Notes: generated by a model not told the origin, from the sequence alone. A stretch of 62,323 bases of DNA from an uncultured bacterium (GCA_903934015.1 CAIZMI010000022.1:1-62323); one strand, 5' to 3'. Positions 1 through 61,044 are shown, counted from the stretch's first letter. Made by a program: numbers and translations.

Positions 1-24
1 ATGAGGGATGCGTAAACACTAACG

Positions 25-70
25 CTCTCTCCCCTTTGTAAGGGGAGATTAAGAGGGGTTTAGGGGTTTA
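25..70. repeat. Short palindromic intergenic repeat module, type M1 (CCCCTTT-loop-AAGGGG hairpin plus G-rich tail)
   Basis: Sequence ctctctcccctttgtaaggggagattaagaggggtttaggggttt. The same module type recurs at 44345, 45791, 49632, 50010, 59375 (rc) and 61172 (rc). Confidence 0.6.
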
Positions 71-218
71 TGCTCCCACTATTGCCTTATACACCGGCCT
101 AAATTTTTTTATTGCCGTTTTGTTGTATATGGCATTAGCGGTAGCAACAAAAAGTAATTTCAAGCCCAGCCGGCGGACGCCGGCAAACAAGGAGACGACT
201 TAATCAGTCGTTTCAAAA

Positions 219-521
219 ATGATTCAATATATTCTGTGCCTCCTGGGGAGGCACACACCTTTTGAGGTGTGTGGTGGAGACATCGTCTGTCTCCACTGTG
301 GGGTTGAGCTGTCAGACGGCCTTGACCGGCTGACCGCTTACATGTGTGGCACCCCCTGCCTAGATGTTTCGAGGGAGGAGGTTCAGGTCGTCGTCGGGAA
401 ACTGACGGCGACGGAAAAAAACAAACTCGTTCGGATGTCGGCATCCGAACGGGTGGGCTACCTCTCCGCCCGCACAAGATGCGGAGAAAGGATCGCGCGT
501 GCCGTTGCGCGATCAATGTAA
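219..521 (+). CDS. Hypothetical small Cys-rich protein (100 aa), first GC-rich cassette
   Basis: ATG ORF in the GC-rich block. It has CxxDxxCxxC-type cysteine pairs (CGGDIVCLHCG, CGTPC). An AAGGAG at 189-194 is separated from the ATG by a 6-bp hairpin (195-211). The antisense ORF 160-516 is judged a shadow. Confidence 0.4.
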   Translation: MIQYILCLLGRHTPFEVCGGDIVCLHCGVELSDGLDRLTAYMCGTPCLDVSREEVQVVVGKLTATEKNKLVRMSASERVGYLSARTRCGERIARAVARSM

Positions 522-711
522 TCCCAGATGTCGGTGCGCGTTAGCGCAAGGCAACGCCGACAAATCGAAATGTTGCCAACGTTCTTTTCGTTAGTTTCAT
601 CTCGGGAGACCACAATAATCATCATCGATATATTTGTGGTCTTCCTCCCATCTCTGCTTACTTGTACTCTGGCTACAAAATCATTTTTATGCCACAAGCA
701 GTACAAAGCAG

Positions 712-935
712 AGACGGGAGAAAAGGTTTCCAACAATACCAAAGGTATTTAGAAAAAACTTCTTGTTAGTATTCCATCCCGTAAATTTTCAACATCAGGT
801 GAAAATTATGCGGGATCCACGTTTAATAACAATGGACCCCGCATCTCCGCCAGTTGGCGGATGCGGGGTGGTATGACTTAAGAAGTTAAGCAAAGATACT
901 TTCGGCGTTGTTGGAAGAAAAATTTCAGACCCGCC
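712..935 (+). repeat. Structured AT-rich repeat, copy 1 (core 728-916 bounded by 21-nt inverted termini)
   Basis: ttccaacaataccaaaggtat (728-748) pairs with atactttcggcgttgttggaa (896-916). The internal sequence is near-identical to copies at 2716-2890 and 7538-7710. The terminal hairpin is extended by a self-complementary insertion (837-868). Confidence 0.9.
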
Positions 936-984
936 GGCGTAAGCCGGCAAACTTTAGCGGAGGCGGGCTTGGCCCGCAAAAAAA

Positions 985-1662
985 ATGAAGAATCAAGTTC
1001 TGGTCGGCAAGCGGGCGAGCGTGGCGTTTGCAGCTTTTTTGGTCAAGTACTCCCTCCCGGCCCCTATGGATGTCGAAATTTCCCGTCTGGGATTGCGTTC
1101 GGTTGAATTGGCCAAACGCGTCTGCGCGGGAAAAAAATCCGTCGGTGGGTGGCGAGGATTTTTGGGGCAGGTGGTGGACGTGGAAAAGGAGGAATATTTT
1201 TACGTCCTGGAGGGATCGGATGGTCGGCAGTTTTATCGCTCCCCGACCCCCCACAAGACACTCCACGTTGAATGGCAGTATGTCATACGTGGCACCGAGC
1301 TGTGGGCGGTGGCGGTAGGGCTTGCGTCCTCATTCCTCGACGGAAAGATGGACGTGAAACTCGTCGACCTCCCCGAGGAGGTCGTGGACGGCAACGCCAT
1401 CCTGCCGGAAGGCTGGGTGGCCGAGTACTGGCCCACCTGTTACTGTGGCTATGATGGCCACCCTGGCCAACTACTGTTCGAGTCGGAGGTGAAGGATTAC
1501 CTCCAGAAGTGGCTGGCGAGTCGCAGTCACACGGACACGTCGTTGTGTCCGTGTGGTCAACCGCTCGACTCGAGCGGGAACTGTCCGCACTGCGACTACT
1601 GCTCGCGCTGTGGCGCGGGAATCGCAGGACAGGGTGGCTGGTGCGCCACCTGTGACGGTTAG
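985..1662 (+). CDS. Hypothetical protein (225 aa) with C-terminal multi-Cys zinc-ribbon-like tail
   Basis: Long ORF in the GC-rich block. The C-terminus is CPCGQPLDSSGNCPHCDYCSRCG...WCATCDG. No clear SD. A perfect 11-bp hairpin follows. Confidence 0.5.
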   Translation: MKNQVLVGKRASVAFAAFLVKYSLPAPMDVEISRLGLRSVELAKRVCAGKKSVGGWRGFLGQVVDVEKEEYFYVLEGSDGRQFYRSPTPHKTLHVEWQYVIRGTELWAVAVGLASSFLDGKMDVKLVDLPEEVVDGNAILPEGWVAEYWPTCYCGYDGHPGQLLFESEVKDYLQKWLASRSHTDTSLCPCGQPLDSSGNCPHCDYCSRCGAGIAGQGGWCATCDG

Positions 1663-1681
1663 TCGCACCAAGTTGTTCTTT

Positions 1682-1722
1682 TCGGAGGCGGATAAGACTT
1701 TTAGTCTTTGTTCCGCCTCCGA
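1682..1722 (+). terminator. Long perfect hairpin immediately after ORF 985-1662 (possible terminator lacking a U-tract)
   Basis: tcggaggcgga (1682-1692) pairs with tccgcctccga (1712-1722). An inner aagac/gtctt helix lies within it. No T-run follows. Confidence 0.35.
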
Positions 1723-2112
1723 GATCCTGATCCGCGAATGGATGTTCGCGCTGATGAGTTCTTAGGATATTTTGAAGGACGAAATCAGGAAAAACGAGAA
1801 GGAAAAATTAATTAGCTTTGCAGTATTTTTATAAAATATAATACGCGATATTTAGCGAAAGTATCGAAAAAGATTTTTGGGACGCAGTTTAAGGGAAATC
1901 ATTAGCGGATAAAATATATCTGGCTTTCTTCCAGATCTTCGTTTGCATTAAACGAAGGTTTGAAAGAAGGGAATGATTCTCTTCAGTCTTCATTTGCCCC
2001 GCTTTCAGGGGATTGCTGGTGGCCGATTAGAGGCCATTGATTCCTGCCACAGGAAGCAATGAGCAGGGTCGTGGGTTACGACTTGCTCTTGTGTGGCATG
2101 GGGTTTTAACCC

Positions 2113-2517
2113 ATGAAGACTATCGTCAACTGTTGTCCGCACTCCCTCCGTATCCGAGTCAACGTCGCCAATGTGGTGGCAGAACCGGATGTGACCGACA
2201 TTGTCGTCGAACCCCGCAAGGGCGACGACGGCAAACCAGTGCCGGCCCGCGTCAGCACGACGCCGGGCGGTCGTTTGGATGACATCGCCGGCATCGCGGT
2301 CTTCGGCCCGACGGTATTTGGTGCCGTCGAAAACCTGCCGGATCCCGCCACGGACACGATCTATATCGTGTCGGCGGTCGTTGGCGGTCGGCCCGAGGTG
2401 CAAACGCGACCGGACGTCTTCGTCTTGGGGACGGGCCCCAGTGACGGAACAGTCCGGTTCGGAGAAGGCCTCCAGAAGGGGCAGGTCTACGCGGTCACGC
2501 GCCTCATCAAGGCGTGA
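2113..2517 (+). CDS. Hypothetical protein (134 aa)
   Basis: ATG ORF in the GC-rich block with plausible protein-like composition. The start codon lies in a 6-bp hairpin, catggg-gttttaa-cccatg. The antisense 241-aa ORF (2005-2730) is judged a GC-rich shadow. Confidence 0.5.
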   Translation: MKTIVNCCPHSLRIRVNVANVVAEPDVTDIVVEPRKGDDGKPVPARVSTTPGGRLDDIAGIAVFGPTVFGAVENLPDPATDTIYIVSAVVGGRPEVQTRPDVFVLGTGPSDGTVRFGEGLQKGQVYAVTRLIKA

Positions 2518-2696
2518 TCGCGGTCCGTCCGTTTTTGTTCTTTCAGTTCTTTTTTTACAGAAAGGGTTTATAAAAATCCCGCCGATCGCTTGTCGATCGC
2601 GTCGGGTCGGCGTGTACACTGCCGGAAACTGAAACGTGTACAGAGGAGTCTTTATTGGCTCCTCTCCTTCTTTCAACCCACAAACTTTTTTGTGAG

Positions 2697-2908
2697 TTGA
2701 AACGAAAGAATATTTTTCCAACAACACCAAAGGTATTAAAAAAAACTTCTTGTAATATTCCCATCCCGTAAATTTTCAACATCAGGTGAAAATTATGCGG
2801 GATCCACGTTTAATAACGATGGACCCCGCATCAAGTGCGGGGTGGTATAAATCAAAAAGATAAGCAAAGATACTTTCGGTGTTGTTGGAAACGGTTTCGG
2901 TTCGATTT
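2697..2908 (+). repeat. Structured AT-rich repeat, copy 2 (core 2716-2890)
   Basis: Inverted termini 2716-2736 and 2870-2890. Conserved core cccgtaaattttcaacatcaggtgaaaattatgcgggatccacgtttaataacgatggaccccgcatcaagtgcgggg. Confidence 0.9.
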
Positions 2909-3318
2909 TTGGCCTCACCTAAGGCATCGGGTGACGGCTGTAAAGAGAGGAGAAGGCCTTGGTAGGGCGGGGGGTACTGCCTTCTGGGGCGGGAACCCCA
3001 ACAGTGGAGTGACTGATCAAGCGAAGGTCCTCCGTGAAATCGAGTCTTTGCAGGCACCGGTGGTTTTGCGTTGAAGGTGTCGCCCTGGAGTTTGAAATCT
3101 CCGAAATCAAAATTAGTCGTTGTTTGTTCGCGTTCAGGGTCCGACCTTTTCAAAGGTCGGACCCTGATGCAAAAGTTGTTGTAAAACATGACAGGTCCAC
3201 CGCGTGAGAAACCACAGTTTCTTTTACGCGGCTTTTCTAAAGCTCATCGGAATAATTTCGGTGCGCCTTAGTGAAAGAAAAAAGAAAAACAATAAACAAG
3301 AAAAAAGGAGAATTGAAA

Positions 3319-5697
3319 ATGAACATTAAAAGAAATGGTCGGCAAGCATTGCCGATCGACGCGCGGATTCCTGAAATTCTCGCAACGATGCGGAAAAATC
3401 AGGTCGTGATCGTCGAAGCCGAAACGGGTGCCGGAAAAAGCACTCGGATCGGACAAGCGGCCATGGAGGCTGATCGATGGCTTCGCATCATCCACACCTT
3501 ACCGCGTCGTTTGGCGGTGCGGTCGATCGGTAAACGTATTGCCGACGAAGTGGGTTGCGAGGTTGGGGATCTCGTGGGCTGGCGCCTGCGAGGAGAAACA
3601 CCGCGCGTGTCCTCGCGGACGCGCATGGTGTTAGAAATCGATCAGACGCTCGCGAATTGGATTCGCGAGCACCAGAAACTGCCGGAAGGCCTGATAATCG
3701 TGGACGAAGCGCACGAGCGCTCGATCCCGACAGACCTTTTGTTGGGTATGTTAAAGGAGTATTTGCCCAACTCTCCAAATACAAAAATCGTCATCATGTC
3801 GGCGACTATCGATACGCAGAAATTCTCTGCGTTTTTCGGTGGCGCGCCGGTGATTTCGGTGAGCGGGCGGTGTTTTCCTGTCAGCACGGAGGTGGTGCAG
3901 TTGGGAAAGTATGAGCACCACTCGAATGCGGCCGGGCGCGCGGGAACGATGGTGATCGATCGGTTTTTGGCTGGACGGCTCGCCGTTCCAACCGAAGATG
4001 GTTTGTCATCGCGCTTTGTTGCCGGTGGTACGGTTCTCGTCCTCTTGCCCGGAAAAGAGGATATTTCTGAAGTTCGTCACTTGCTTCAGAAATACGCGAA
4101 AGAGAAAGAGTGCGAAGAGGCCGTGGTTGTGATGGAATGCCACGGCGAGAGTCGCGAAGATGAACAAAGAGCGGTCTTGACGCCGGTCGTCGAAGGAACG
4201 TTACGTTTTGTTTGTGCCACGGAAGTGGTACGGACGTCCGTGACCGTTCCCGATGTGATCGGAGTTATTGATTCTCTTCAGATCAAGCGGATGAAAACCA
4301 ATCCCAAGGGGATTGGCCGTTTGATCAAAATCCCAGTGTCCCGCGCCGAGGCTGATCAGGCAAAAGGGCGCGCCGGCCGGACACAACCCGGGTTCTACAT
4401 CGCCTGTTCGTTTGAAGGTGAGTATGAACTTGGACGGTTGGCACCTTACCCGACACCCCAAATTCTGATGTCGCCTGCCACGAGTGTTTGTTTACAAGTG
4501 GCAGCGATCGGTCGGTCGGCACGGACGTTTGCGTTTGTTGATCCGCTCGATCAGGATCGGGTTGCGCTCGCAATCCGACGCCTGCAAGACATCGGGGCGT
4601 TGGATGAAGCAGAAAAAATCACCGAGGAGGGTGAGTTTCTGCTTCGTTTCTCTATTCAGCCGGAACGTGCAAAGTGCCTGATTACCGCAGCAAAATGTGG
4701 AGTTCTTCCCGAAACGGTAATCGCCTGCGCGGTTCTTGAAACGGAAGGTTTCTACTTCCGCGTAAAGAACAAAGGGGAGAAGTTGATCGTGGATGAAAGA
4801 ATCCTGCGGTTGATTCTTTCTTACAAGGGTGAGTACGGGAGCTGGCAACGGAATCCGGCAAAAAAGCCGGATGAAGTTGATTTAACCCCGGAAAAAATCC
4901 CCGACTGGGCGACGATCAAGGGGCCCGGGGTTTATGAGATTAACTGCGGAGCATCGCGTTTCGCGGAAAACGGAACACACTTCGTGTCGGACGTATTACG
5001 AAGATTTTGGGCCGGCGAGAGCAGGTCTGATTTCTTTGGGATTGTCCAGGCATACCGCATGTTCAAACAGGCGGAACGAGAAGTGCGAGAATTGGGGGGT
5101 CGTTCACGCAAGGAGCAGGACGACATCCTCTACAACTGGTGCAAGACGTATCAGTTGAATATGAAGCGGATTCGCATGGCAGAGGAAACCATGCAAATGA
5201 TTCGCGATGAGTTGTGGAGCACGGAATTTCGGTTGGAGAACGGCCTTGGTGAGTGGCGGGAATTTGACGCCAAAGCCCTGACCGACTCTCTGTTGTCGGG
5301 GATGACCGACAACGTAGCGATTCTTTCCGGGCGTGGTAATTACGAAAGCCGGCTCGGGTCGCTACAGATCGCATATTCGTGCGTGACCCCGCAGAACGTT
5401 CAAGTGGCGTTGGTGGATGACGTCCGCCAAGTGCCGACTGGACGTCTGCGGACTAGTTTTATACAGTTGGCCGGATGCGCGGCGGAATTGACAATTGAAC
5501 GGATCATGAAAGTGGTCCCGCACCTTTGCCAGACCCTGAACATGGGTGACCATCAATATGACTGGGAAAATGACGCGGTGACCCGTACTCAAGTTCTGAA
5601 CATGCGGGACTTGCAGGTGGGCACGCGGAAAGTGCCCAGTCCGACGGAAGACGCCCAGCGTGTTTTCGCCGGCGCTCTGGCAGATCAAATGATATAA
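3319..5697 (+). CDS. DEAH-box (DExH) helicase, HrpA/HrpB-like
   Basis: Walker A ETGAGKST, motif II VDEAHERS, motif III SAT, motif VI QAKGRAGR, then an HA2-like segment (FVDPLDQDRVALAIRRLQDIGALD). I chose the ATG at 3319 because AAGGAG lies 8 nt upstream; the ORF track starts at 3271. Confidence 0.85.
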   Translation: MNIKRNGRQALPIDARIPEILATMRKNQVVIVEAETGAGKSTRIGQAAMEADRWLRIIHTLPRRLAVRSIGKRIADEVGCEVGDLVGWRLRGETPRVSSRTRMVLEIDQTLANWIREHQKLPEGLIIVDEAHERSIPTDLLLGMLKEYLPNSPNTKIVIMSATIDTQKFSAFFGGAPVISVSGRCFPVSTEVVQLGKYEHHSNAAGRAGTMVIDRFLAGRLAVPTEDGLSSRFVAGGTVLVLLPGKEDISEVRHLLQKYAKEKECEEAVVVMECHGESREDEQRAVLTPVVEGTLRFVCATEVVRTSVTVPDVIGVIDSLQIKRMKTNPKGIGRLIKIPVSRAEADQAKGRAGRTQPGFYIACSFEGEYELGRLAPYPTPQILMSPATSVCLQVAAIGRSARTFAFVDPLDQDRVALAIRRLQDIGALDEAEKITEEGEFLLRFSIQPERAKCLITAAKCGVLPETVIACAVLETEGFYFRVKNKGEKLIVDERILRLILSYKGEYGSWQRNPAKKPDEVDLTPEKIPDWATIKGPGVYEINCGASRFAENGTHFVSDVLRRFWAGESRSDFFGIVQAYRMFKQAEREVRELGGRSRKEQDDILYNWCKTYQLNMKRIRMAEETMQMIRDELWSTEFRLENGLGEWREFDAKALTDSLLSGMTDNVAILSGRGNYESRLGSLQIAYSCVTPQNVQVALVDDVRQVPTGRLRTSFIQLAGCAAELTIERIMKVVPHLCQTLNMGDHQYDWENDAVTRTQVLNMRDLQVGTRKVPSPTEDAQRVFAGALADQMI

Positions 5698-5840
5698 GCG
5701 TCGTTTTGTTTCTTTTAGTACTAGCCCCGTTGATGAAAATTCGACGGGGCACTTCTCAGAGTTTTTCAATTAAATGTTTTTTAGTTGGAAGACTGTGACG
5801 AAGACAACAAATATTTACAATAAACAAAAAGGAGCCCCGA

Positions 5841-7424
5841 ATGGACGAGAGAATGTCGGCGGTGATTACCGCCAACAAGGCGCGTCAAGCACGCGCGAAA
5901 GAATTAAACGCCCGTTCGGGCGAAAAAACTTTTCCCGTTTTATCGCGGGAAGAGTTGGCGACGTGGTTGCAAGAAAAACTGGACGGCGCGATTTCGGTCG
6001 CGACTGTCAAGGATTTAGAGCAACTGCGGTTGCCCCCGTTGGGTCAGGAGTTAGTCGACTTGGTGGTGACGGAAAACCCCGATTCGATTAAGGTTCTTGG
6101 TCGCGACTGCGCGGTGAATTATGTCGATTACCGCGAAGCACGTAAGTATCCGCAGGTGAAAATTGATTTTCGGGAAGAACAAGCCAACGATTGGCAAAAT
6201 CTCCCGGATGTTATTAATTTGCCGAGTGGTCGTGAAGTGGCTTTTTACTCGGCCATCGATGGGTACGGATATTACATCGATTGCCGGTCGTCGGAGTTCA
6301 AAGCGAAAGTTCGCGACGGCCTGAACGAAAGTCAGTGGTCAAACTGGCCGGAAACGGCACGACCTGCGATTGTTTTGCCCGACCCGGCGGATGAAAATTC
6401 CGTTGTCGCGGATGTCATTACAACTTGCTACGGCAAGTGCGTGGTGACGGCGACGGACCTGGTCGCCTTCGGGACTGTTGCCCTGAACCCGTATCGCAAT
6501 TACGAAAGCGATTCGTGGTTCAAGGTTCTCTGGACTCGCAACCGCACCGAGGCCGAGCAGGCGCACGATGCGGTTGTCGCAAAAATCGTCACCATTAAGG
6601 AGGAAGTAAAAAGGCGACGAGAGGAAGAAGAACGGCGGGCACGCGAGGAGAGCATGCTAGCGACTTTGCGGAGTCAAGCAGAGTTGGCCAAGGTCCGGGT
6701 CGGGGGATACTATGAATCTCTCTGTCACAAATCGGATATAGATCCCGTTCTTCGTGATCGGCTGTATGAACGGCGGTACGATTACCGCGCGCCTTCAACG
6801 GCGGACGGTCTTCGACGGTGGATTTTAGAGACCGACGCGCTTTGTGAAGAGGCGAAAACAGTCACCGCCGAAATCGAAGCGCGCAACGCGCGACGCGAAG
6901 CGCATCTCGAAGCCACGCGGAATTTATATTCGCAGGCCAGCTTGCTGGTTAATGAAGACGGAACGATTTCCGTCCTGCGTGGTAAAACATCGAAGATTGG
7001 ATCTTTCGAGGTCGACAATTCGGTCGGTGAGTGGTTCACGAGCGAGGTTTCAACCGATAATGAGGGTCGGTATTGCTCGTGGCAACCGGTTCGAACCGGA
7101 CGACTGGTGCGCTGTCGGGAGTTTTCCGGCGCTGGTAACCAAAAGGGTGAAGCGGAGTTCATCGTTCAGGACGGACAATTGACTCCGGGGGTTTGGAGTG
7201 TCGCCGAGGACGACAATGGTCGTTTCTTTTACCCTGTGATTTACTACAAGAACGGCCGGGAAATTGTTCCGGAAAAATTCGAAGTAGTGCGGGAAGTGAG
7301 GGAATGTCCGCGGGTCCACGGGCCGGTCGTAAAAGGCCCGCCCGCACCGGCTGGAAGTTTGGATATGACCAAACTTTTCGGTGGCGCTACTATGCCACGC
7401 GAAAAGCCAGTTCGCAGGCGGTAG
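5841..7424 (+). CDS. Hypothetical 527-aa protein coupled to the DEAH helicase (charged coiled-coil centre)
   Basis: AAGGAG lies 6 nt upstream of the ATG. Long GC-rich ORF with an EEVKRRREEEERRAREE coiled-coil-like stretch. I recognised no catalytic motif. Confidence 0.7.
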   Translation: MDERMSAVITANKARQARAKELNARSGEKTFPVLSREELATWLQEKLDGAISVATVKDLEQLRLPPLGQELVDLVVTENPDSIKVLGRDCAVNYVDYREARKYPQVKIDFREEQANDWQNLPDVINLPSGREVAFYSAIDGYGYYIDCRSSEFKAKVRDGLNESQWSNWPETARPAIVLPDPADENSVVADVITTCYGKCVVTATDLVAFGTVALNPYRNYESDSWFKVLWTRNRTEAEQAHDAVVAKIVTIKEEVKRRREEEERRAREESMLATLRSQAELAKVRVGGYYESLCHKSDIDPVLRDRLYERRYDYRAPSTADGLRRWILETDALCEEAKTVTAEIEARNARREAHLEATRNLYSQASLLVNEDGTISVLRGKTSKIGSFEVDNSVGEWFTSEVSTDNEGRYCSWQPVRTGRLVRCREFSGAGNQKGEAEFIVQDGQLTPGVWSVAEDDNGRFFYPVIYYKNGREIVPEKFEVVREVRECPRVHGPVVKGPPAPAGSLDMTKLFGGATMPREKPVRRR

Positions 7425-7464
7425 TTCATTTAGTCCGGCGACAAAAGACGGACAATCATTTATC

Positions 7465-7497
7465 GGGAAGAATTCGTCGCATTCTTCCCTCTTTTTT
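7465..7497 (+). terminator. Rho-independent terminator after ORF 5841-7424
   Basis: gggaagaat (7465-7473) pairs with attcttccc (7481-7489), followed by tctttttt. Confidence 0.7.
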
Positions 7498-7519
7498 GTA
7501 GCCCATATTTCTTGTAGGC

Positions 7520-7726
7520 TTCAACGAAAGAATAATTTTCCAACTACACCAAAGGTATTAGATAAACTTCTTGTCATATTCCATCCCGTAAATTTTCAAC
7601 ATCAGGTGAAAATTATGCGGGATCCACGTTTAACAACGATGGACCCCGCATCAAGTGCGGGGTGGTGATAATTTAGAAGTTAAAAATAGATACTTTCGGT
7701 GTTGTTGAAAGAGATTTTAGACCCGA
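7520..7726 (+). repeat. Structured AT-rich repeat, copy 3 (core 7538-7710), last element before host genes
   Basis: Termini 7538-7558 and 7690-7710, with two more mismatches than copy 2. Same conserved core. The GC-rich block ends here. Confidence 0.9.
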
Positions 7727-7855
7727 TTTTTTTTAGGTTTTTACTTAAAATATAATCCGCATCTCTCATTTGGTTTGTACAAAATTCCCCGTATCTTTTG
7801 ATAGTGGGGTGTTTTTAGTTTTCTCAAAAAGATAATATTCGGCTATGCTCATAGT

Positions 7856-9277
7856 ATGAATCAAACATTTAAACCAGGGACAAAAGTTTATTGTCTCGGC
7901 ATCGGTGGAATCGGTCTTTCCGGTGCGTCGCAATGGATGAAGGAGTTGGGTTGTGAAGTTTCAGGTTCAGATCGTGCCGTATCAATTGTGACGGAAATGT
8001 TGGAAAAGATGGGAATTTCAGTGAAAATTGAAGAAACGACAGTAAACGTTCCGGAAGAGACGCAAATTGTTGTTTATTCCGATGCGTTGCCGTTTGAACA
8101 CCCCGCTCGTGTTTTCGCGCGCGAGAAGGGGATTCGCGAAATGAACTATGCCAAATGTTTGGGCTTGCTTACTGAAAGTTATCGTTGTATCGCTGTTGCC
8201 GGAAGTCATGGAAAATCCACAACAACGGCGTTGATCGCACACATATTAACCGAGGCTGGTTTGGATCCGACGGTCGTGGTTGGCACAAAAGTTCCGACGC
8301 TGGGAAATGTAAATTTTCGTTTTGGGAAAAGCGATATTGTGGTTGTTGAGGCAGATGAATTTCGGAGCCATTTTTTGGAGCTTTCTCCAACAGTCGCCAT
8401 TATTAATAATATCGATCACGATCACGTTGATGTATTTCCAACGATTGAATTATATGTGGATGCATTTAGAAAGTTTATTGGGAAAATTAAAACGGGCGGA
8501 GAATTGATATTGTGGGCGAGTGATAAATATTCCACTGGTTTGATGGAATTGCGAAATGATTTGAAAATTTCAACTTTTGATTTGGTTAACGCGGAGATTG
8601 CTTCGGTCGCCACGCTGGCGACCTCGCAAAGACGAGACTACGCTGTAACTTTTCAAAGGTATGAAGATGGACGGCAATATTTTGTTGTCGCTTGTGATGG
8701 TGTTTCGTTGGGTGAATTTAATGTCGCATTTCCGGGCGATCACATGCTTTTGGATGCTGTTACAGCCATTTCGGCCGTAGCACCTTTCGTTGATGATGTT
8801 GAAAAAATTAGAAACGCTATGGCCACTTTTCGTGGTACGTGGCGTCGTTTTGAATTGGTCGGAAAATATAAAAGCGCGACCGTGATTTCGGATTACGCGC
8901 ATCATCCCACTGAATTAAGGGCGCTACTATCAGGAGCGAGACAAGCTTATCCAAACAAAAAAATTACGATCGTTTTTCAACCGCATCAAAGTACCAGAAC
9001 GCAAGCATTTGGGGACGATTTTGTTGAGGCTTTATCGCTGGCGGATGAGGTGCTTTTGGTGGAAGTGTTTAGTGTGGCGGGTAGGGATAATCCAAAAGAC
9101 TTTGCCACAGACAGGCATTGGGTGGAGATATTGAAGCAAAAAGGAAAAGAAGCATATTTTGCCGAGGATTTGTATATGGCAGAAAAGATGTTGCGTGAAA
9201 CGGAAACAACGGATGAAATTTTGTTGTTCGTGGGGGCGGGTTCAATTGATGGGTTGGCACGCAGTATTGTGCAATAA
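7856..9277 (+). CDS. murC: UDP-N-acetylmuramate--L-alanine ligase
   Basis: N-terminal GIGGIGLSG...GCEVSGSD Rossmann segment, P-loop AGSHGKSTTT, length 473 aa, adjacent to murB. Confidence 0.9.
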   Translation: MNQTFKPGTKVYCLGIGGIGLSGASQWMKELGCEVSGSDRAVSIVTEMLEKMGISVKIEETTVNVPEETQIVVYSDALPFEHPARVFAREKGIREMNYAKCLGLLTESYRCIAVAGSHGKSTTTALIAHILTEAGLDPTVVVGTKVPTLGNVNFRFGKSDIVVVEADEFRSHFLELSPTVAIINNIDHDHVDVFPTIELYVDAFRKFIGKIKTGGELILWASDKYSTGLMELRNDLKISTFDLVNAEIASVATLATSQRRDYAVTFQRYEDGRQYFVVACDGVSLGEFNVAFPGDHMLLDAVTAISAVAPFVDDVEKIRNAMATFRGTWRRFELVGKYKSATVISDYAHHPTELRALLSGARQAYPNKKITIVFQPHQSTRTQAFGDDFVEALSLADEVLLVEVFSVAGRDNPKDFATDRHWVEILKQKGKEAYFAEDLYMAEKMLRETETTDEILLFVGAGSIDGLARSIVQ

Positions 9278-9312
9278 TAGATACGTATTAATCCTTTCGG
9301 ACAGTAATCACA

Positions 9313-10185
9313 ATGCTAAATATTGAGGAAAATGTAATATTATCTAAATTTTGTACATGGCACGTTGGTGGTCCGGCGCGATATTTTGTGCGTGTTTCAA
9401 CTATCCAAGATCTTAAAGAGGCGTTGTTGTGGGCACAAGAAAAAAAACTTGCTCATTTTGTTTTAGGCGGTGGTTCAAATATACTTTTTTCGGATGTTGG
9501 TTATGCTGGATTAATTATCAAAATTGAGGGACGGGGAGTTGTAATTAACGGATCCGAATTGATTGTTGAAGCTGGAGCAATCGCTCGTTTGGCGGTGCTG
9601 AAGGCGTCTGAACTGAATCTGGGCGGATTGGAACATTTGGCGGGAATTCCCGGAACAATTGGCGGATTGGTGCGTGGTAATGCCGGTGCTTTTGGGATGG
9701 AAACAAAAGACTCTTTGGTGCGCGTGCATGTTCTTCATAATGTTGGTAATGAATGGAAGGAGGAAATATTGGAGAGGAAAGATGTATATTTTTCATATCG
9801 TGATTCGTTGTTTAAAAAGGAAACCGGTAGTTATATTATTTGGGACGCGACATTTGCGTTAATACCTATTCCGAAAGATGTAATCTTGAAGCTTGTGAAT
9901 GATGATTTATCTGCCAGAAAAGACAAACAACCATACACTTTTCCCAGTGCCGGATCGGTATTTAAGAATCCGTCACTTGAAATATCGGCCGGTCGATTGA
10001 TTGAAGAGTGTGGTTGTAAAGGCTTAAAAATTGGTGGGGCGGAAGTGAGCACACAACACGCCAATTTTATTTTAAACAAGGGAGGGGCGACTTCTTTTGA
10101 TATCCATGCGTTAATTGAGGAGATTAAAAAAAGAGTTTTTGAAGCAAAAGGGGTAAAACTGGTTGAGGAAGTAATTGTTCTATAA
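9313..10185 (+). CDS. murB: UDP-N-acetylenolpyruvoylglucosamine reductase
   Basis: GGGSNILF FAD-binding motif, SAGSVFKNP motif, 290 aa. Confidence 0.85.
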   Translation: MLNIEENVILSKFCTWHVGGPARYFVRVSTIQDLKEALLWAQEKKLAHFVLGGGSNILFSDVGYAGLIIKIEGRGVVINGSELIVEAGAIARLAVLKASELNLGGLEHLAGIPGTIGGLVRGNAGAFGMETKDSLVRVHVLHNVGNEWKEEILERKDVYFSYRDSLFKKETGSYIIWDATFALIPIPKDVILKLVNDDLSARKDKQPYTFPSAGSVFKNPSLEISAGRLIEECGCKGLKIGGAEVSTQHANFILNKGGATSFDIHALIEEIKKRVFEAKGVKLVEEVIVL

Positions 10186-40960: not shown

Positions 40961-41509
40961 ATGAAAAACATTAAATTGTCTCCCAATTTTGAACCGGCGG
41001 TAAGCCATTTGGTGGAACAGTTGCGTGGTATTCGAACCGGGCGCGCATCTACCGGACTGGTGGAAGGTGTTACCGTTGACTACTATGGAACGCAAACCAG
41101 GTTAAAAGACATCGCGTCAATTACTACGCCCGGTGCCCAACTTATTCAAATAGAACCTTGGGATAAAAATGCCGTAAGTAATGTCGTGAAAGCGATTGAA
41201 ATTTCATCATTGGGCTTGAACCCAACTGTTGCCGGATCAATAATCCGTCTTAATTTGCCACAATTAACCGAAGAACGTCGTAAGGAATTAGTTAAGGTGG
41301 TTGGCAAATACGTGGAGGAAGCAAAAATTGCCGTTCGCAACGTGCGTGAAAAACTTTTGCGTGAAATTAAAAATCAGTTAGATGCCAAGGAACTTTCCGA
41401 AGATGAGCATCGAGGCGAAAAAGAAACGATTCAAAAAGAGGTAAATGATGCTTTGCAAGTAATAGATGAAGAAGGTAAAGAAAAAGAAAATGAACTTCTT
41501 ACGGTGTAA
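40961..41509 (+). CDS. frr: Ribosome recycling factor
   Basis: LRGIRTGRAS..., VTVDYYG, typical length of 182 aa and a charged C-terminal helix. Confidence 0.9.
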   Translation: MKNIKLSPNFEPAVSHLVEQLRGIRTGRASTGLVEGVTVDYYGTQTRLKDIASITTPGAQLIQIEPWDKNAVSNVVKAIEISSLGLNPTVAGSIIRLNLPQLTEERRKELVKVVGKYVEEAKIAVRNVREKLLREIKNQLDAKELSEDEHRGEKETIQKEVNDALQVIDEEGKEKENELLTV

Positions 41510-42604: not shown

Positions 42605-44343
42605 ATAAAACTAAAATTTCTCAAAAGCAATCAGAATTTTTTTGCAAAACCACAAGGGAAACACCTAAGGATGTTGAGTATGATTCACATGCCTATTTAA
42701 TTAGGGGTGGTTATATTCGCGAGTCGGTCGCCGGGCGTTATTATTTTTTACCGCTTGGTTATAAGGTGCAACAAAAAATCATGGAAGTTGTTCGCGAAGA
42801 AATGAATAATGCCGGCGCGCAAGAAATGTTGGCTCCGATTTTGCATCCGTTGGAATTGTGGAAAGAAACAAACCGCACAAATACGACGGGTTTTGAGCTT
42901 ATGAAAGTTACGGATCGGCGTGGTGGAGAATTCGCACTTGGCGGAACGGCCGAAGAAATGTTTGTCGACTTAGTGCGACAATTTAAATTGAGCTACAAAG
43001 ATTTGCCATTTCAGCTTTATCAGTTCTCGCCAAAGTTTAGGGATGAATTACGCGCTCGCGGTGGGTTATTGCGTGTGCGTGAATTTATTATGAAAGATGG
43101 CTACTCATTTCATCGAAACGAGGAAGATTTTAAGGAAACATATGAAAAAATGAAAAAGGCCTATACGAAAATGTTTAGTCGATTGGGGCTTAAAACGGCG
43201 ATTGTCGAATCCGATAACGGCTATATTGGTGGCGAATATTGTCACGAGTTTATTGTAGAATCGGAAATTGGCGAGAGTAAATATTTCACTACCGAAAATG
43301 GCGATTATTCGGCGCACGAGGACGTTGCAAAATTTATGAAATTTAAGGAAGAAAATACCAATGAACCGGAAAAAGCAAGAGAAGATGTTGAAGGTGTTGG
43401 AATTATCGGCGTTGAGGAATTGGCAAAATTCTTGCAAATTCCGGCCGAAAAGACAACTAAAACAATTCTTTTTGTGACAGAAAAAGGCGAAGTGGTTGCA
43501 GTCGCGATTAATGGTATTTATGACATCAATGAAACGAAACTAAAAAATATTCTTGGTTGCGCGCAATTAAAATTGGCTTCGCCGGAAGTGGTCGAAAAAA
43601 TTACCGGCGCTACGGTTGGCTATGCCGGTATATTGAATCTGCCGAAGGAAGTAAGAGTTGTGATGGACGAATCGCTAAAAGGAAGAAAGAATTTTGAGTG
43701 CGGTGCCAACAAGACAAATTATCACTCGATTAATTTAAATTTTGGTCGCGATATCATTGAACCTGAAAAATATTACGATATTGCTCTCGCAAAGGCCGGC
43801 TATTTGGCGCTTGATGGAAAACAGCCTCTTGTTGAGAAAAAAGGCATCGAAGTCGGAAATATTTTTCAGCTTGGTTATCATTATTCAAAATTAATGAAGG
43901 GCGCGGTTTACACAGACGCGGATGGAAAAGAAAAGCCTTTTTACATGGGTTGTTATGGATTTGGTGTTGGTCGCACGATGGCGACCATTGCCGAGAAATA
44001 TCACGATGTAAAAGGATTGATGTGGCCAAGTATCGTGGCGCCATTCGATGTTCATGTTGTTTCACTAAAAGACAATGATTATGCCGTAAAAGTGGTTGAA
44101 ATGTTGAATGCTGAGGGACTGGAAGTGTTGTTTGATGAACGCGATGGCGCATCTGTCGGAGAAAAATTTGCCGATAGCGAACTGATTGGTATTCCGGTGC
44201 AAGTGATCGTCAGCGAGCGGGGCGCGAAAGAAAACATTGTCGAAATTCGCGAACGGAAAGACTTAAAAAATTCCCAAAAAATAAATCGTGATTTAGGGTT
44301 AATTTTGGCGGAAATTAATAAAATATTAAAGTATAATGATTAA
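42601..44343 (+). CDS. proS: Prolyl-tRNA synthetase (bacterial type with insertion domain)
   Basis: Class II motif 2 FRDELRARGGLLRVREFIMKD, motif 3 region GCYGFGVGR, 580 aa. Confidence 0.9.
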   Translation: MNKTKISQKQSEFFCKTTRETPKDVEYDSHAYLIRGGYIRESVAGRYYFLPLGYKVQQKIMEVVREEMNNAGAQEMLAPILHPLELWKETNRTNTTGFELMKVTDRRGGEFALGGTAEEMFVDLVRQFKLSYKDLPFQLYQFSPKFRDELRARGGLLRVREFIMKDGYSFHRNEEDFKETYEKMKKAYTKMFSRLGLKTAIVESDNGYIGGEYCHEFIVESEIGESKYFTTENGDYSAHEDVAKFMKFKEENTNEPEKAREDVEGVGIIGVEELAKFLQIPAEKTTKTILFVTEKGEVVAVAINGIYDINETKLKNILGCAQLKLASPEVVEKITGATVGYAGILNLPKEVRVVMDESLKGRKNFECGANKTNYHSINLNFGRDIIEPEKYYDIALAKAGYLALDGKQPLVEKKGIEVGNIFQLGYHYSKLMKGAVYTDADGKEKPFYMGCYGFGVGRTMATIAEKYHDVKGLMWPSIVAPFDVHVVSLKDNDYAVKVVEMLNAEGLEVLFDERDGASVGEKFADSELIGIPVQVIVSERGAKENIVEIRERKDLKNSQKINRDLGLILAEINKILKYND

Positions 44344-44344
44344 G

Positions 44345-44433
44345 GTTTCGTTGTCGTTACCCTCCTTTATTAAAGGAGGGCGGGGGTGGATTTCGTCACA
44401 GTTTTCCGTCATTCCTGCAGGGGAGCAGGAATC
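44345..44433. repeat. Repeat mosaic M1 + M2
   Basis: ccctcctttattaaaggaggg hairpin plus tail (M1), then gtcattcctgcaggggagcaggaatc (M2, 8-bp stem attcctgc/gcaggaat). Confidence 0.7.
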
Positions 44434-44475
44434 AGTAGTCACCAATTTATCCAATTCTACATATATTTTTAATTA

Positions 44476-45528
44476 ATGTTTGATCGACTGTTTGGAAAAT
44501 TTTCACAGGATTTAGGAATTGATCTTGGTACGGCCAATACTCTTGTTTATAGTAAGGGAAGAGGGATTGTAATAAATGAACCATCGGTGGTGGCAATGAA
44601 TATCAAAACCAAGCAGATTTTGGCAATTGGTACGGAAGCGAGAAAAATGGTCGGTAAAACGCCCGCCCACATTGTGGCAACGCGTCCGCTTCGCGACGGT
44701 GTTATTTCCGATTTCGAAATCACGGAACACATGTTACGCTATTTTATCGACAAAGTGCATCATGATTCATTTTCATTGGTGCCAAGACCGCGGGTAATTA
44801 TTGGTGTGCCTTCCGGAGTAACCGAGGTAGAAAAACGCGCCGTGGAAGACGCGGCGATGCGCGCCGGCGCGCGCAAGGCATTTCTGATCGAAGAGCCAAT
44901 GGCGGCCGCGATTGGGTCCCGTCTTCCGGTGCAAGATTCGGCTGGAAATTTAATTGTTGATATTGGCGGTGGTACAACCGAGGTTGCGGTTATTTCGCTT
45001 GGGGGTGTGGTTGTTAGTCGTTCCTTGCGTATTGCCGGTGATGAATTGAGCGAAAACGTGATTCAATACGCGCGTGATGAATTTAATTTGCTTTTGGGGG
45101 AACGCACCGCGGAAGAAATAAAGATTGGGATCGGTTCGGCGTGGGAACTTTCAGAACCATTGGAAATGCCAATGCGAGGGCGTGATTTGGTAACGGGACT
45201 TCCTAAAGAGGTAATCGTAAACGACACGCAAATTCGTGAAGCATTAAGTCGATCCGTAAGAACGATTATTAATAGTGTTAAATCGACAGTAGAAGAGACT
45301 CCGCCGGAATTATTAGCGGATATTATGGAGCGGGGAATTGTGTTGTCTGGCGGTGGCGCGCTTTTGCGTGGTTTGGATAAATTAGTTGCTTCAACAACAC
45401 ATATTCCAACACGAGTGGCCGATGATCCGCTTACGGCCGTTGTGCGTGGTACAGGCATTGTTTTGGAAGAATTGGAATCACTGCAAGAAGTCTTGGCCCC
45501 ATCACCGTCCCCCAAGCCGTTGAGATAG
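44476..45528 (+). CDS. mreB: MreB paralog 2
   Basis: LGIDLGTANTLVY, IVDIGGGTTEVAVISLGG, VLSGGGALLRGLDK. Pro/Ser-rich C-terminal tail. Bracketed by repeat mosaics. Confidence 0.9.
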   Translation: MFDRLFGKFSQDLGIDLGTANTLVYSKGRGIVINEPSVVAMNIKTKQILAIGTEARKMVGKTPAHIVATRPLRDGVISDFEITEHMLRYFIDKVHHDSFSLVPRPRVIIGVPSGVTEVEKRAVEDAAMRAGARKAFLIEEPMAAAIGSRLPVQDSAGNLIVDIGGGTTEVAVISLGGVVVSRSLRIAGDELSENVIQYARDEFNLLLGERTAEEIKIGIGSAWELSEPLEMPMRGRDLVTGLPKEVIVNDTQIREALSRSVRTIINSVKSTVEETPPELLADIMERGIVLSGGGALLRGLDKLVASTTHIPTRVADDPLTAVVRGTGIVLEELESLQEVLAPSPSPKPLR

Positions 45529-45532
45529 TTAG

Positions 45533-45891
45533 TTCCTTCCCTTTGTAAGTGGCGCGGCGGATGCCCCGAAAACACTCGGTGAGTGTTTGAGAGGGTGCCT
45601 GCGCCGACATATCAGTGTCGTGCCGGGCGGGGATGGGTTTAGTCAGGATCACGCGCAGAACAGGGGCAGTTATTAGACAAAAAAAAAGCGTCTTTGCGAG
45701 CATCAGCGAAGCAATCTCCGCGTCGTAGCCGTCGCGCCGTATCTTTCCTTACCTAAGAACCTGTCCACAACTTGATTGGCGAGAAGGCGCGGATGGGTTT
45801 TGTCGTCGCCTTCCCCCTTTATTCAAAGGGGGACTAAGGGGGATTTCGTCGTCGTTCGTAGCGTGTTATTCCTGCCCGCGAGCAGGAATCC
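45533..45891. repeat. Repeat mosaic: M3, a 150-bp insert (carrying M5), M1, M2
   Basis: M3 45533-45640, insert 45641-45790 flanked by ggatgggttt direct repeats, M1 45791-45856, M2 45865-45891. M1 and M3 lie contiguous in reverse orientation at 61172-61330. Confidence 0.8.
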
Positions 45892-45910
45892 GTGTAGAGA
45901 TAAAACAACT

Positions 45911-47368
45911 TTATTTCTTATTCAGAAAAACAATTTTTGAGGTGGTTGGTTTCGCTGTTGCGAAATTAATACCAAATTTCGAAATGTAATCAAAATATTT
46001 CATCGCGCTATCATCTTTTAAATTTTTCAATGTATCCCTTTTGCCGAATTTTATTTCTGCCTTGACTAGGGTCATTTTTTTTCTTTCTTGCGCTGATAAT
46101 CCGGAATTATCCATGCGCTCTCGCAGAGCGTAAAAGTGCGCGTAAAGCATTCTTTCTTTCCAGTCATCATCTTTCATATATGCCATCTGCTTTTTCGCGA
46201 ACTCATAATTTGGATTCATACTAAGCGCCAGTTGAAGCATTTTTTTACCCATTTTCTCTTCACCACACGCAAAATGGCAAACAGCTTTATTTGCGAACAT
46301 TCGATAAATATCGTGGCGAACCACAAATTCCTTAATTAGTAAATCAAAGACTTCATACCAAGTATCCAGGGCGGAAACAAAACTATTTTGCTTCATTAGT
46401 TTATTGGCTTTCTCAAGTTTCATCCAACACTTGTCGCCACCTATTTTATTAACGTCCCAAATTAATTCGGCATCGGCGGACGGGTTTTCTAAATTCTTTT
46501 GTTGAGGCGACTTTCCATTCAAATCTTTTTGGGGAGAGGTGTTTTGAACATCAATAAAGGCGTGTGTTATTTCATTAATAATGGGGGTGTTATCATATTT
46601 GTCTGGAACCAGTCCCAAAATTATTGATACAAATTCAATCGGGTTTTTAGATTCAATATTTTGGAACCATTCAACAATTTTTTCAACCGAGATATATTGA
46701 TTGATTTCCGCCTTTACCAGAAGCTCCGCAAGTCGAAAACGCGCTTGTTTGGCGTCGATTATTCTTTCGTCATTATTTGACTTTTCTTTTTTTTCTTTTG
46801 CAAAGCCAAATGCGTCCTTGGCGGTTAATTTCTTTTTATCTTTTCTAAAAATATTTCTAATATTTTCCGTTGTTTCTACAGTTGGAAGAACATTATTATC
46901 GGCTCCCACCAACTCCCAGTGATCTCCCACTTTGGCAACGCGATTAAAAAATATGTTTCCGGGGCGTAAGTTATGCGTGGCGGATTTTTCTTTTACTTCA
47001 TAAATCGTGTCGGTTTTTAAATCGCGCATTGTCAATCCTTCGTCAATCCGTACTGAAATAACTTCAAAAAAACCAAAGTTCTGCGTTTTGATGAGATCGT
47101 CATAAAGACTCAATAGTGTCTGGTCTGTATGTTGTTTGGTAACCTCTCGATATTCCTGAATTAAGTTGTTACCATTTTCCAATTTAAAGTCGAAAAGAAC
47201 CCATTCATTGAATATTCCTTCTTGCGTTGTTGACAGTTCAAGGTCAGCAAAATCCTCAATCTTTTTGAGGTTAAAAAATTCCAAAACCGCACCCTTTATT
47301 TCGTCGGAATAAAATGGGTTTGCCGTGAAGAAGTCAACTATTTGTTTGAGGCTTCCACTTGGTAGCAT
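45911..47368 (-). CDS. Hypothetical 485-aa protein with C-terminal TPR-like repeats
   Basis: Long clean ORF. The C-terminal helical repeats (ALDTWYEVFDLLIKE...MLQLALSMNPNYEFAKKQ) look TPR-like. I did not recognise the N-terminal domain. Confidence 0.75.
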   Translation of the reverse strand: MLPSGSLKQIVDFFTANPFYSDEIKGAVLEFFNLKKIEDFADLELSTTQEGIFNEWVLFDFKLENGNNLIQEYREVTKQHTDQTLLSLYDDLIKTQNFGFFEVISVRIDEGLTMRDLKTDTIYEVKEKSATHNLRPGNIFFNRVAKVGDHWELVGADNNVLPTVETTENIRNIFRKDKKKLTAKDAFGFAKEKKEKSNNDERIIDAKQARFRLAELLVKAEINQYISVEKIVEWFQNIESKNPIEFVSIILGLVPDKYDNTPIINEITHAFIDVQNTSPQKDLNGKSPQQKNLENPSADAELIWDVNKIGGDKCWMKLEKANKLMKQNSFVSALDTWYEVFDLLIKEFVVRHDIYRMFANKAVCHFACGEEKMGKKMLQLALSMNPNYEFAKKQMAYMKDDDWKERMLYAHFYALRERMDNSGLSAQERKKMTLVKAEIKFGKRDTLKNLKDDSAMKYFDYISKFGINFATAKPTTSKIVFLNKK

Positions 47369-47527
47369 GAGATATTTGGATGGTATAAGTTATTGGGATA
47401 ATTTTCAACAGGAGATAGTGTCTAATATGAAAAAGTCTCCTTAAGTAGTAAGCCGTCCGGATCCCTTTTCTTCTGCTTAATTCAATGGTACCTGAATTTA
47501 CAAGCTTACCAAGTGCCAATACCGCGT

Positions 47528-47605
47528 GTCATTCCTGCCCGCGAGCAGTAATCCGGGTGTTAGGGTCCGTCACCGGCTGAAGAAGTAACCGGATCCTGGT
47601 TAGTG
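47528..47605. repeat. Repeat mosaic M2 + M4
   Basis: gtcattcctgcccgcgagcagtaatcc (M2), then gttagggtccgtcaccggctgaagaagtaaccggatcctggttagtg (M4). Confidence 0.7.
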
Positions 47606-47618
47606 TAAACATGGAATT

Positions 47619-47709
47619 TTCACGGTTATGAGTGAAAAAACGTGAAAAAGTGTGTAAAAATCACTATTATTCACGCTTAACTTGACAAAACCGTGAAATA
47701 ATGTATGAT
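47619..47709 (+). promoter_or_regulatory. Fic promoter (TTGACA-16 nt-TATGAT) preceded and overlapped by five TTCACG/CGTGAA half-sites
   Basis: -35 at 47682-47687 and -10 at 47704-47709. Motif copies: ttcacgg 47619, gtgaaaa 47632, cgtgaaa 47641, ttcacgc 47670, cgtgaaa 47692. Confidence 0.55.
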
Positions 47710-47715
47710 GCATGT

Positions 47716-48600: not shown

Positions 48601-48615
48601 AATAATCAGTCGTCT

Positions 48616-49583: not shown

Positions 49584-49585
49584 CG

Positions 49586-52030: not shown

Positions 52031-52032
52031 AT

Positions 52033-54588: not shown

Positions 54589-54591
54589 ATT

Positions 54592-60993: not shown

Positions 60994-61044
60994 TTGTTAC
61001 TGATTCTGTTTTGATGAAGCGGAGTGAGAAGTATATTTATGGAC

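Follow-up and report, generated by a model that had tools for sequence, protein, structure and literature searches.

What is a structured repeat doing, in three copies, among the genes of a foreign block of DNA in front of murC? The question is raised by the first 7.7 kb of a 62,323-nucleotide (nt) stretch of DNA (GCA_903934015.1, CAIZMI010000022.1:1-62323; the whole stretch is referred to as the window) from an uncultured ultra-small bacterium of the Candidate Phyla Radiation (CPR)/Patescibacteria. The block examined is the GC-rich DNA between murG and murC, and the repeat is called R. The genomes of this group are tiny and tightly packed, and their uptake and organisation of foreign genes are poorly known. 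With about even confidence, we read R as a new, lineage-restricted structured intergenic repeat, similar to miniature inverted-repeat transposable elements (MITEs) and the enterobacterial repetitive intergenic consensus (ERIC), which has a functionally constrained core and sits between the genes of an island that was acquired horizontally and occupies a murG-murC hotspot.

Anatomy and fold of R

Exactly three copies of R were found in the window, on which a repeat finder, MAFFT and nhmmer agreed:

728..916, + strand: repeat R1, 189 nt, with a 13-nt palindromic insertion in the third (last) hairpin
2716..2890, + strand: repeat R2, 175 nt, whose termini are the best preserved of the three copies (13 perfect base pairs, bp)
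7538..7710, + strand: repeat R3, 173 nt, exactly at the boundary of cargo and host, with an orthologue upstream of murC in the related contig L018

The three near-identical copies had been placed at these coordinates by the initial annotation of the sequence. Its cores were recovered as such, but the repeated unit is longer than the cores and measures about 240-260 nt. The 21-nt inverted termini that it described were also found: the terminus TTCCAACAACACCAAAGGTAT has six matches, which form three inverted pairs, against a chance expectation of 0.01. In R2 the closing stem runs for 13 perfect bp, then through one A.C and one G.T opposition into 4 further pairs. The stem has neither a bulge nor an unpaired spacer, and its two strands are equivalent. 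Within the closing stem lie a second helix of 8-9 bp and a core of three hairpins. The hairpins are built from similar arms (CCATCCCG / ATGCGGGAT / ACCCCGCAT / TGCGGGGTGG) of the type known from repetitive extragenic palindromic (REP) sequences, as in the arm pair ATCCCGCAT/ATGCGGGAT, and their pairing is possible in two alternative ways.

The fold of R is much more stable than that of shuffled sequences, with z = -8.6 and -9.1 on the two strands. No Rfam family was matched by R in the window or in the relatives, at gathering or at permissive thresholds, which agrees with its earlier description as a structured repeat outside the described families. A stand-alone hairpin that combines the arms of the R core with the same palindrome as the R1 insertion is located 350 nt downstream of murG.

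R1, R2 and R3 start 207, 199 and 114 nt past the preceding stop codons, respectively. A terminator-like hairpin with a T run precedes both R2 and R3, and T runs are also present 15-20 nt downstream of these two copies. The only open reading frame (ORF) inside R has 17-22 codons. It begins with ATG behind a Shine-Dalgarno (SD)-like AGGTGA and was rejected as a gene, since its C-terminus varies from copy to copy and host genes do without SD sequences.

The block occupies a hotspot between murG and murC

Relatives were reached via their MurC and MurG homologues, and five lineages were compared at the murG-murC slot. The named MurC homologues place the organism in Parcubacteria/Patescibacteria; the best match among GTDB representatives is 26% identical, and no close representative exists there. 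The features that delimit the block are as follows:

1..140, + strand: end of the left arm of the hotspot, composed of the J hairpin and the junction motif, kept in L021, L019 and L020
about 30-75, + strand: J hairpin, CCCCTTTGTAAGGGG plus a G-rich tail, with further copies at 44360, 45813 and 50020
about 73-140, + strand: junction motif GTACACCGGCCTAAATTT..TTGCCGTTTTGTTGTA..GGCATT; divergence among relatives starts right after about 140
141..7537, + strand: foreign cargo, 52.5% GC, between murG and murC, delimited by composition and by the empty site in L029/L030
7856..9277, + strand: murC, the first host gene past the island

The same locus in another sample (L006) reaches 1.8 kb further upstream and ends in murG; the insertion thus begins before the window, with the end of murG 1.8 kb upstream of its base 1. 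In L029/L030 (MurG 79% identical, 1-Mb contig) the gap between murG and murC is only 29 nt, and the flanking synteny is the same as in the window (mraY-murD-ftsW-murG, followed by murC-murB-GT2-GT4-epimerase-PMT_2). The block is therefore an insertion in the division and cell wall (dcw) cluster, for which L029/L030 provide the empty site.

Composition gave the same picture. GC content is 0.525 for bases ~141-7537 vs. 0.409 for 7711-62323, and counted per kb it is 0.48-0.54 across 1-7000 and ~0.32-0.48 beyond. The initial annotation had called the first 7.7 kb foreign and had let the block end at the third repeat. Both statements hold, as R3 lies exactly at the cargo/host boundary and is followed by murC. 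Third-position GC is 0.59-0.76 in the island ORFs and 0.22-0.45 in host genes. All credible ORFs of the block are on the + strand, as had been proposed: a coding-type pattern (GC1 > GC2 < GC3 over the codon positions) was found in all five of them (219-521, 985-1662, 2113-2517, 3319-5697, and 5841-7424), whereas the minus-strand ORFs are flat or overlap a gene with homologues. Two of the latter, both predicted by some gene callers, were rejected as spurious. ORF 2005-2730 overlaps ORF134, a gene with homologues; ORF 2782-3189 has flat codon-position GC and runs into R2. The SD sequence AAGGAG stands ahead of the helicase gene and of the gene for a 527-aa protein, both in the island, whereas the host genes have no SD sequence, a point on which the initial annotation was right. 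The donor of the cargo is therefore a GC-richer, SD-using organism.

The slot is filled differently in other relatives. L020 (MurG 83%) has 3.6 kb in it, of which a 2.5-kb stretch has 0.51-0.62 GC, with genes for a secreted 309-aa protein and a 252-aa protein. L021 (NCBI GCA_030647555.1, MurG 91%) has at least 9 kb of 0.52-0.60 GC, coding for Csx3, Csx3-AAA, a MoxR-type ATPase and a VWA protein, and L019 (MurC 81%) has ~1 kb with one membrane protein. The islands of the window, L019, L020 and L021 have no cargo protein in common. Altogether the slot is occupied in 4/5 compared lineages, with cargo that differs each time and that lies 10-20 GC points above the host wherever composition was measured (window, L020 and L021). 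A non-coding left arm that ends in the junction motif is common to all occupied genomes, and they diverge from window base ~140 onward. Given this shared left arm and the different cargo of each genome, the block is one occupant of a lineage-wide hotspot within the dcw cluster. It has the hallmarks of a genomic island in a hotspot, namely presence or absence between core genes, atypical composition and variable cargo.

Other origins of the block were considered and rejected. A prophage or phage origin found no informative PHROG matches, and the 527-aa protein had no tblastn match in phages. For a retron, a diversity-generating retroelement or another reverse transcriptase (RT) element, no RT domain was present in the island ORFs, and the differences between R copies are not adenine-specific. 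No tRNA or tmRNA that could serve as integration target was found in L006, L019, L020, L021 or L009. Within the window, ARAGORN called a tRNA-Asn(att) at 41202-41275 (- strand, anticodon ATT), which is almost certainly a false positive, inside the RRF gene (40961-41509).

Three observations concern the surroundings of the slot. MurC and MurB, encoded just past the hotspot, are more diverged than their neighbors (48-60% and 56-70% aa identity, window 7856-10185 vs. L020 and L030): upstream MraY, FtsW and MurG are 79-91% identical, and GT2, GT4 and the epimerase further downstream 73-88%. This could result from recombination at the hotspot edge or just from faster evolution. An extra small ORF is located between murC and murB in L017 (1962-2348, 128 aa), L018 (1856-2395, 179 aa) and L019 (2519-2917, 132 aa) and is missing in the window, where murC (to 9277) is followed by murB (from 9313); the murC-murB gap may be another small variable slot. 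Finally, the assemblies of several samples start or end at the J hairpin and left junction (L006 1741-1881, corresponding to window -44 to 97). Repeats or strain heterogeneity could explain these contig ends at the hotspot edge.

The core of R is constrained

We compared the three paralogous copies with each other and with the orthologue in L018. Between pairs of paralogues, 1-2 differences were found in 82 core columns vs. 14-21 in ~90 peripheral columns (Fisher p = 4e-5 to 7e-4), the periphery of the copies diverging by 16-23%. The nhmmer matches to R comprised this organism's three sites and the start of L018 (MurC 83%), where the copy lies directly upstream of murC and is the orthologue of R3. 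At 5/75 visible positions it differs from R3, and its core part is identical. For comparison, the third codon positions of murC are 58.5% identical between the window and L018; the spacer between R3 and murC is likewise well conserved vs. L018. A core that is nearly invariant both between paralogues and in the orthologue points to purifying selection, or to very recent exchange.

R as a probable repeat of the host lineage

In our reading, R belongs to the host lineage and not to the cargo. Its GC content of 0.38-0.41 is host-like (0.41), vs. 0.54-0.64 for the island ORFs. Terminal inverted repeats, small size and the lack of a transposase gene are the features of a MITE, and R has all of them. 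For the spread of R and the role of its core we infer the following, beyond the anatomy, insertion, hotspot, host-like composition and core constraint shown above. The copies would have entered, or would have been copied into, a purine-rich spacer motif (..ACGAAAGAA..) past the terminators of island transcription units, and they would persist because the core is functional. The likeliest core function would be that of a cis-acting structured element at transcription-unit boundaries, either an RNA hairpin or a protein-binding DNA site, and such an element would insulate or tune the expression of the next unit, murC included. The periodicity of ORF and repeat would then arise because the spacers of acquired DNA are among the few permissive sites of a very compact genome, and cassette capture would not be needed. 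A possible view of the state before insertion is offered by the R-free island of L020, where GAAAAACTGCCCGG, a sequence similar to the right flank of R1, comes after the left-flank motif GTTGAAACGAAAGAA. Although non-orthologous, this site looks like an unoccupied R target.

A number of results weigh against R being a MITE/ERIC-like element. The initial annotation had seen short direct motifs on both sides of each copy. Purine-rich 5-6-mers (GAAAA, GAAACG and AAAGA) do recur in the flanks, but at different offsets in each copy, and they are not consistent target-site duplications. No parent insertion sequence with the same termini was matched in searches of GTDB, JGI, IMG/VR, plasmids or phages, and no cognate transposase is known. 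Exact words from the R core and termini had 0 matches in GTDB genomes, JGI metagenomes and IMG/VR, a search that diverged relatives could escape, and BLAST against plasmids and phages returned nothing. The remaining 55 kb of the window are free of R, and it is absent from the fetched loci of relatives, among them 21 kb surrounding the empty site and whatever is visible of three other islands, so that only three linked copies and the L018 orthologue were seen. All three copies share one orientation, as recombination sites would be expected to do, although random insertion would also give this with a 1-in-4 chance. Similarity between the copies does not stop at the termini but reaches ~30 nt past the left one (..CTTGTRRG..AACGAAAGAATAWTT) and ~16 nt past the right one, from which the unit length of about 240-260 nt given above was derived. 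The core is better kept than the termini, unlike in a purely selfish element. Among the three near-identical copies, not one of the 62 predicted pairs of R has changed in a compensatory way, and 7 have lost their pairing in one copy; the terminus changes in R1 and R3 break pairs, and none preserves one. A selected RNA structure for R is therefore unproven. As both strands fold equally well, function at the RNA level and function at the DNA level are indistinguishable.

The copy number may be higher than the window indicates. Three contigs (L002, L004 and L018) break at the same point inside R, as expected of assemblies at a multi-copy repeat, which suggests that more copies of R exist.

Other explanations for R

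The strong fold and the invariant core would also be expected if R were primarily an RNA, that is, if the copies were three paralogous small-RNA genes or cis-acting leaders upstream of ORF225, the helicase operon and murC, with the termini as closing helix. R has the same orientation as the genes, each copy lies past a terminator and ahead of the next unit, and T runs follow R2 and R3. In addition, the slot upstream of murC in relatives without R holds a closed multi-hairpin element of 190-310 nt, called S here (L017 150-375, L019 640-955, and L020 9770-9965). S contains the conserved boxes GAATCAGAYCGGGGA and TTCAATTTTCTCTCCTGA, then GGCGGTTTTTT, and has no Rfam match. Compensatory changes were found in 17/56 of its predicted pairs, including five consecutive pairs of the closing helix. 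S is absent from the window, L018 and the empty-site genome, whereas L017, L019 and L020 are without R. The RNA reading of R is nevertheless unlikely in our view. The lack of an Rfam match, the equal folding of both strands and the broken, non-covarying pairs described above count against it; no promoter-like site was seen upstream on the + strand, and the three downstream genes are unrelated.

Quite unlikely, too, is that R is a recombination joint, at which modules were captured successively by site-specific or homologous recombination within R to leave R-module-R-module-R beside murC. The process could resemble the way islands accrete in tandem at an att site, or the array could be integron-like, with its recombinase encoded elsewhere. 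The copies are direct repeats in one orientation and enclose two modules that differ in their distribution: L009, L011 and L013 have the helicase pair without the R1-R2 genes. The island meets host DNA precisely at R3, the copy with an orthologue in L018, the cargo of the hotspot changes from one relative to the next, the termini (TTCCAAC / GTTGGAA; GTTGAAA in R3) carry a conserved AAC...GTT, and the core is constrained in the way expected of a protein-binding site. However, no tyrosine or serine recombinase domain, IntI included, was detected in the screened ORFs of the 62-kb window or of the 1.8 kb upstream (64 kb). Extension in this direction had been suggested by the initial annotation as a way to find a recombinase; it led to murG, and none was found. 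R is absent from the visible parts of the L019, L020 and L021 islands, which occupy the same slot, and the L020 and L021 islands have no repeat between genes at all. The left edge of the cargo also lacks R. The R-bounded units are 1.8 and 4.65 kb long and contain 2 genes each, and they come with terminators and SD sequences of their own and with long non-coding spacers. Among 14 contigs from several samples, no presence/absence variant was found; the arrangement was the same, and the R sequences were identical.

A broader form of this idea takes in both elements. R, and S as an unrelated but similarly closed element at the same position in relatives, might be the structured right-hand sites of a murG-murC gene-capture platform in a CPR clade, with the recombinase acting in trans or unrecognised. 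Such a platform would consist of a conserved left arm with the junction motif, co-oriented foreign cargo and a folded site, and the three R copies would be scars of successive captures. We consider this decidedly unlikely; if true, the platform would be a functional analogue of the integron made from different parts.

An origin of the copies by segmental duplication or gene conversion of a single ~250-nt island spacer, as remnants with neither mobility nor function, would account for the similarity past the termini on both sides and for the location of all copies within 7 kb in one orientation. It would hardly account for a core with 1-2 differing columns in 82 next to a periphery diverged by 16-23%, for an L018 orthologue kept far above synonymous sites or for a related stand-alone hairpin outside the island, and this origin is very improbable.

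In the folded strand of an integron attC site, an unpaired central spacer lies between the R box and the L box, and 2-3 extrahelical bases show which strand is recombined; the site is usually 57-141 nt long and starts shortly after the stop codon of an ORF that is mostly alone and has no promoter of its own. That R is a true attC, and the block a cluster of attC sites lacking integron-integrases (CALIN), is extremely improbable: its termini fit the consensus RYYYAAC/GTTRRRY at 6/7 positions on each side, the outermost base failing on both, and its copies are co-oriented with the ORFs, but the 13 perfect bp leave no unpaired central spacer and no extrahelical bases, the irregularities being symmetrical mismatches and not bulges, R exceeds the usual length at 173-189 nt and begins 114-207 nt past the preceding stops, the units are multi-gene with terminators, and no IntI was found in the screened ORFs of the window or of the 1.8 kb upstream. 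The initial annotation had noted that the termini resemble the attC consensus without matching it, and the rest of the attC architecture is absent as well. Its preferred interpretation, an integron-like cassette array, is not supported: no recombinase was found in the screened 64 kb, R lacks the attC spacer and extrahelical bases, the units are multi-gene, and the islands of three relatives have no R between their genes. A better fit is given by the other two readings that it offered, MITE insertions into an acquired island and a module with a structural or regulatory role, and the data cannot fully separate these two.

Genes of the island

The remaining features of the island are as follows:

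219..521, + strand: ORF100, Cys-rich, without family match; codon-position GC 0.60/0.47/0.63
985..1662, + strand: ORF225, with a C-terminal Cys-rich zinc-ribbon-like tail, without family match; coding-type GC pattern
1680-1724, + strand: terminator hairpin of ORF225
1725..1790, + strand: candidate type III hammerhead ribozyme (core and three stems), just past the ORF225 terminator hairpin, between ORF225 and ORF134
2113..2517, + strand: ORF134, small protein of the PADLOC family 'Unk_01, sometimes fused to CARF' (PADLOC 2.1e-8; PHROG 3.6e-8)
2642..2665, + strand: terminator-like hairpin, then a T-rich tail, ahead of R2
3319..5697, + strand: DEAH/RHA-family helicase of HrpA/Prp16 type with AAGGAG SD upstream; closest solved relatives Prp16 and HrpA
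5841..7424, + strand: 527-aa helicase partner, whose N-terminal ~350 aa are a domain fused C-terminally to DEAH/HA2 helicases elsewhere
7465..7489, + strand: terminator-like hairpin, then a T run, ahead of R3

ORF100 had no Pfam, NCBIfam, PADLOC or PHROG match. The N-terminal ~350 residues of the 527-aa protein belong to a family of 287 representative clusters at E <= 0.001. In family members of 1000-1500 aa, this domain sits behind a DEAH/HA2 helicase, and the helicase gene and the 527-aa gene therefore together form a split HrpA-like helicase, whose C-terminal module is uncharacterised and was matched by nothing in Pfam, PDB or phages. The AlphaFold2 model of the protein reached a predicted local distance difference test score of 65, with the N-terminal 350 aa usable, and Foldseek gave no PDB match at E < 0.08. 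The helicase pair was found again in three other contigs (L009, L011 and L013), which lack R along with the R1-R2 genes. In L009 it is part of an ~8-kb island of 0.51-0.62 GC in a genome of 0.40 GC, and the island borders are inverted 30-nt AT-rich repeats. ORF134 and the L021 Csx3 genes come from families listed among the accessory proteins of type III CRISPR systems, which hints that the murG-murC slot often carries defence-related genes.

Type III hammerhead ribozymes are recognised by the core CUGAUGA...GAAA, a cleavage site of the form UH and three helices, of which stem III is open. Judged from its sequence, the candidate at 1725-1790 has this structure: it shows a full core (UC cleavage site / CUGAUGAG / CGAAA), with cleavage predicted after C1731, and predicted stems I, II and III of 8, 6 and 7 pairs. 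It scored 21.5 bits against Rfam RF00008, below the gathering score of 48.5. A hand-written hammerhead descriptor gave 1 match in all fetched loci and 0 in 300 shuffles.

Structured repeats in a second variable region

A second repeat-punctuated variable region was found at 44300-50100 of the window, around mreB, a 485-aa unknown ORF (-), Fic (+) and HD (-). Its repeats comprise five copies of the hairpin CATTCCTGCCCGCGAGCAGGAATC, three of the J hairpin (CCCCTTTATTCAAAGGGGG and a G-rich tail) and, as a separate kind, 76-78-nt units; the palindromic families of the region are the J hairpin, the CATTCCTGC..GCAGGAATC hairpin and the 76-78-nt units. The J hairpin is also present at window 30-75, in the left arm of the hotspot, and in L020, and one palindromic repeat family of the region occurs in L017 as well. 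The structured repeats of this lineage gather in the flexible parts of the genome, and an ORF-then-repeat appearance can arise from that alone. The presence of these families, together with the stand-alone hairpin downstream of murG, speaks for the MITE/ERIC-like reading of R.

GC skew flattens over 44300-50100. Directly past this region (50195-56997) are genes for defence, namely a GmrSD-type restriction enzyme, a type I restriction R subunit and a fused M-S subunit. An AAA_14/DUF4143 ATPase is encoded at 59560-60993. A 66-nt direct repeat, 89% identical (58289-58354 and 58836-58901), joins the start of an HD_4-domain gene (58827-59399) to sequence just upstream and suggests a partial duplication at this gene. 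The last ~800 nt before 61832 (61000-61830) contain no ORF and have 0.48 GC.

Comparison with known systems

Repeats of MITE type include Correia elements in Neisseria, ERIC sequences or intergenic repeat units (IRU) in Enterobacteriaceae, and the repeat unit of pneumococcus (RUP) in Streptococcus pneumoniae. Correia elements have the target-site duplication TA, and ERIC is unusually conserved between species. Like these elements, R measures between 100 and 200 nt, has inverted repeats at its ends by which a long hairpin is closed, is non-coding and AT-rich in the manner of the host, and lies in the spacers of co-directional genes. It differs from them in having no target-site duplication, in a core that is more conserved than the termini, in the absence of sequence similarity and in that three linked copies and one orthologue were seen. 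With REP sequences and the bacterial interspersed mosaic elements (BIME) and REP doublets forming hairpins (REPINs) made from them, R has in common a core of short GC-rich palindromic arms that also occurs as a stand-alone hairpin, and the company of further hairpin families in mosaics. Unlike these, R is a fixed unit of 173-189 nt with long AT-rich termini, and no REP-associated tyrosine transposase (RAYT) was in view.

The block as a whole resembles a CALIN in its co-oriented ORF-then-repeat periodicity, in imperfect palindromes that end in ..AAC / GTT.. and in its foreign cargo. It is unlike one in the irregularities and size of its hairpins, in the spacing of its cassettes, which are not compact, and in the absence of an integrase from 64 kb. 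Tandem accretion of islands at an att site also produces direct repeats that part blocks of different origin beside a conserved gene, as seen here, whereas no integrase was found in our block, the repeat is not a duplicated gene end and the left edge has no repeat.

The closest counterparts of the murG-murC slot are the core-genome hotspots cDHS1 and cDHS2 of Pseudomonas aeruginosa, where accessory and defence genes are flanked by core genes (PMC10250203). Like them, the slot is a fixed site between core genes with variable, partly defence-associated cargo (Csx3 and Csx3-AAA in L021, a CARF-associated protein here) and no mobility genes in view. Unlike them, it lies inside the dcw cluster of a CPR genome of roughly 1 Mb, its cargo is 10-20 GC points above the host wherever measured, and conserved non-coding arms flank the cargo, with the left motif on one side and an S or R element on the other. 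The slot, inside an essential cell-wall and division cluster, is empty in one relative and filled differently in others, and it offers a defined and comparable landing site for study.

R itself is a previously undescribed structured element with a core conserved well above neutral expectation. It is a candidate cis-acting RNA or protein-binding site in a group for which hardly any regulatory element has been characterised. If R were a recombination site, it would represent a new cassette system; compared with the systems above, it is more likely an ordinary MITE/ERIC-like element in an unusual place.

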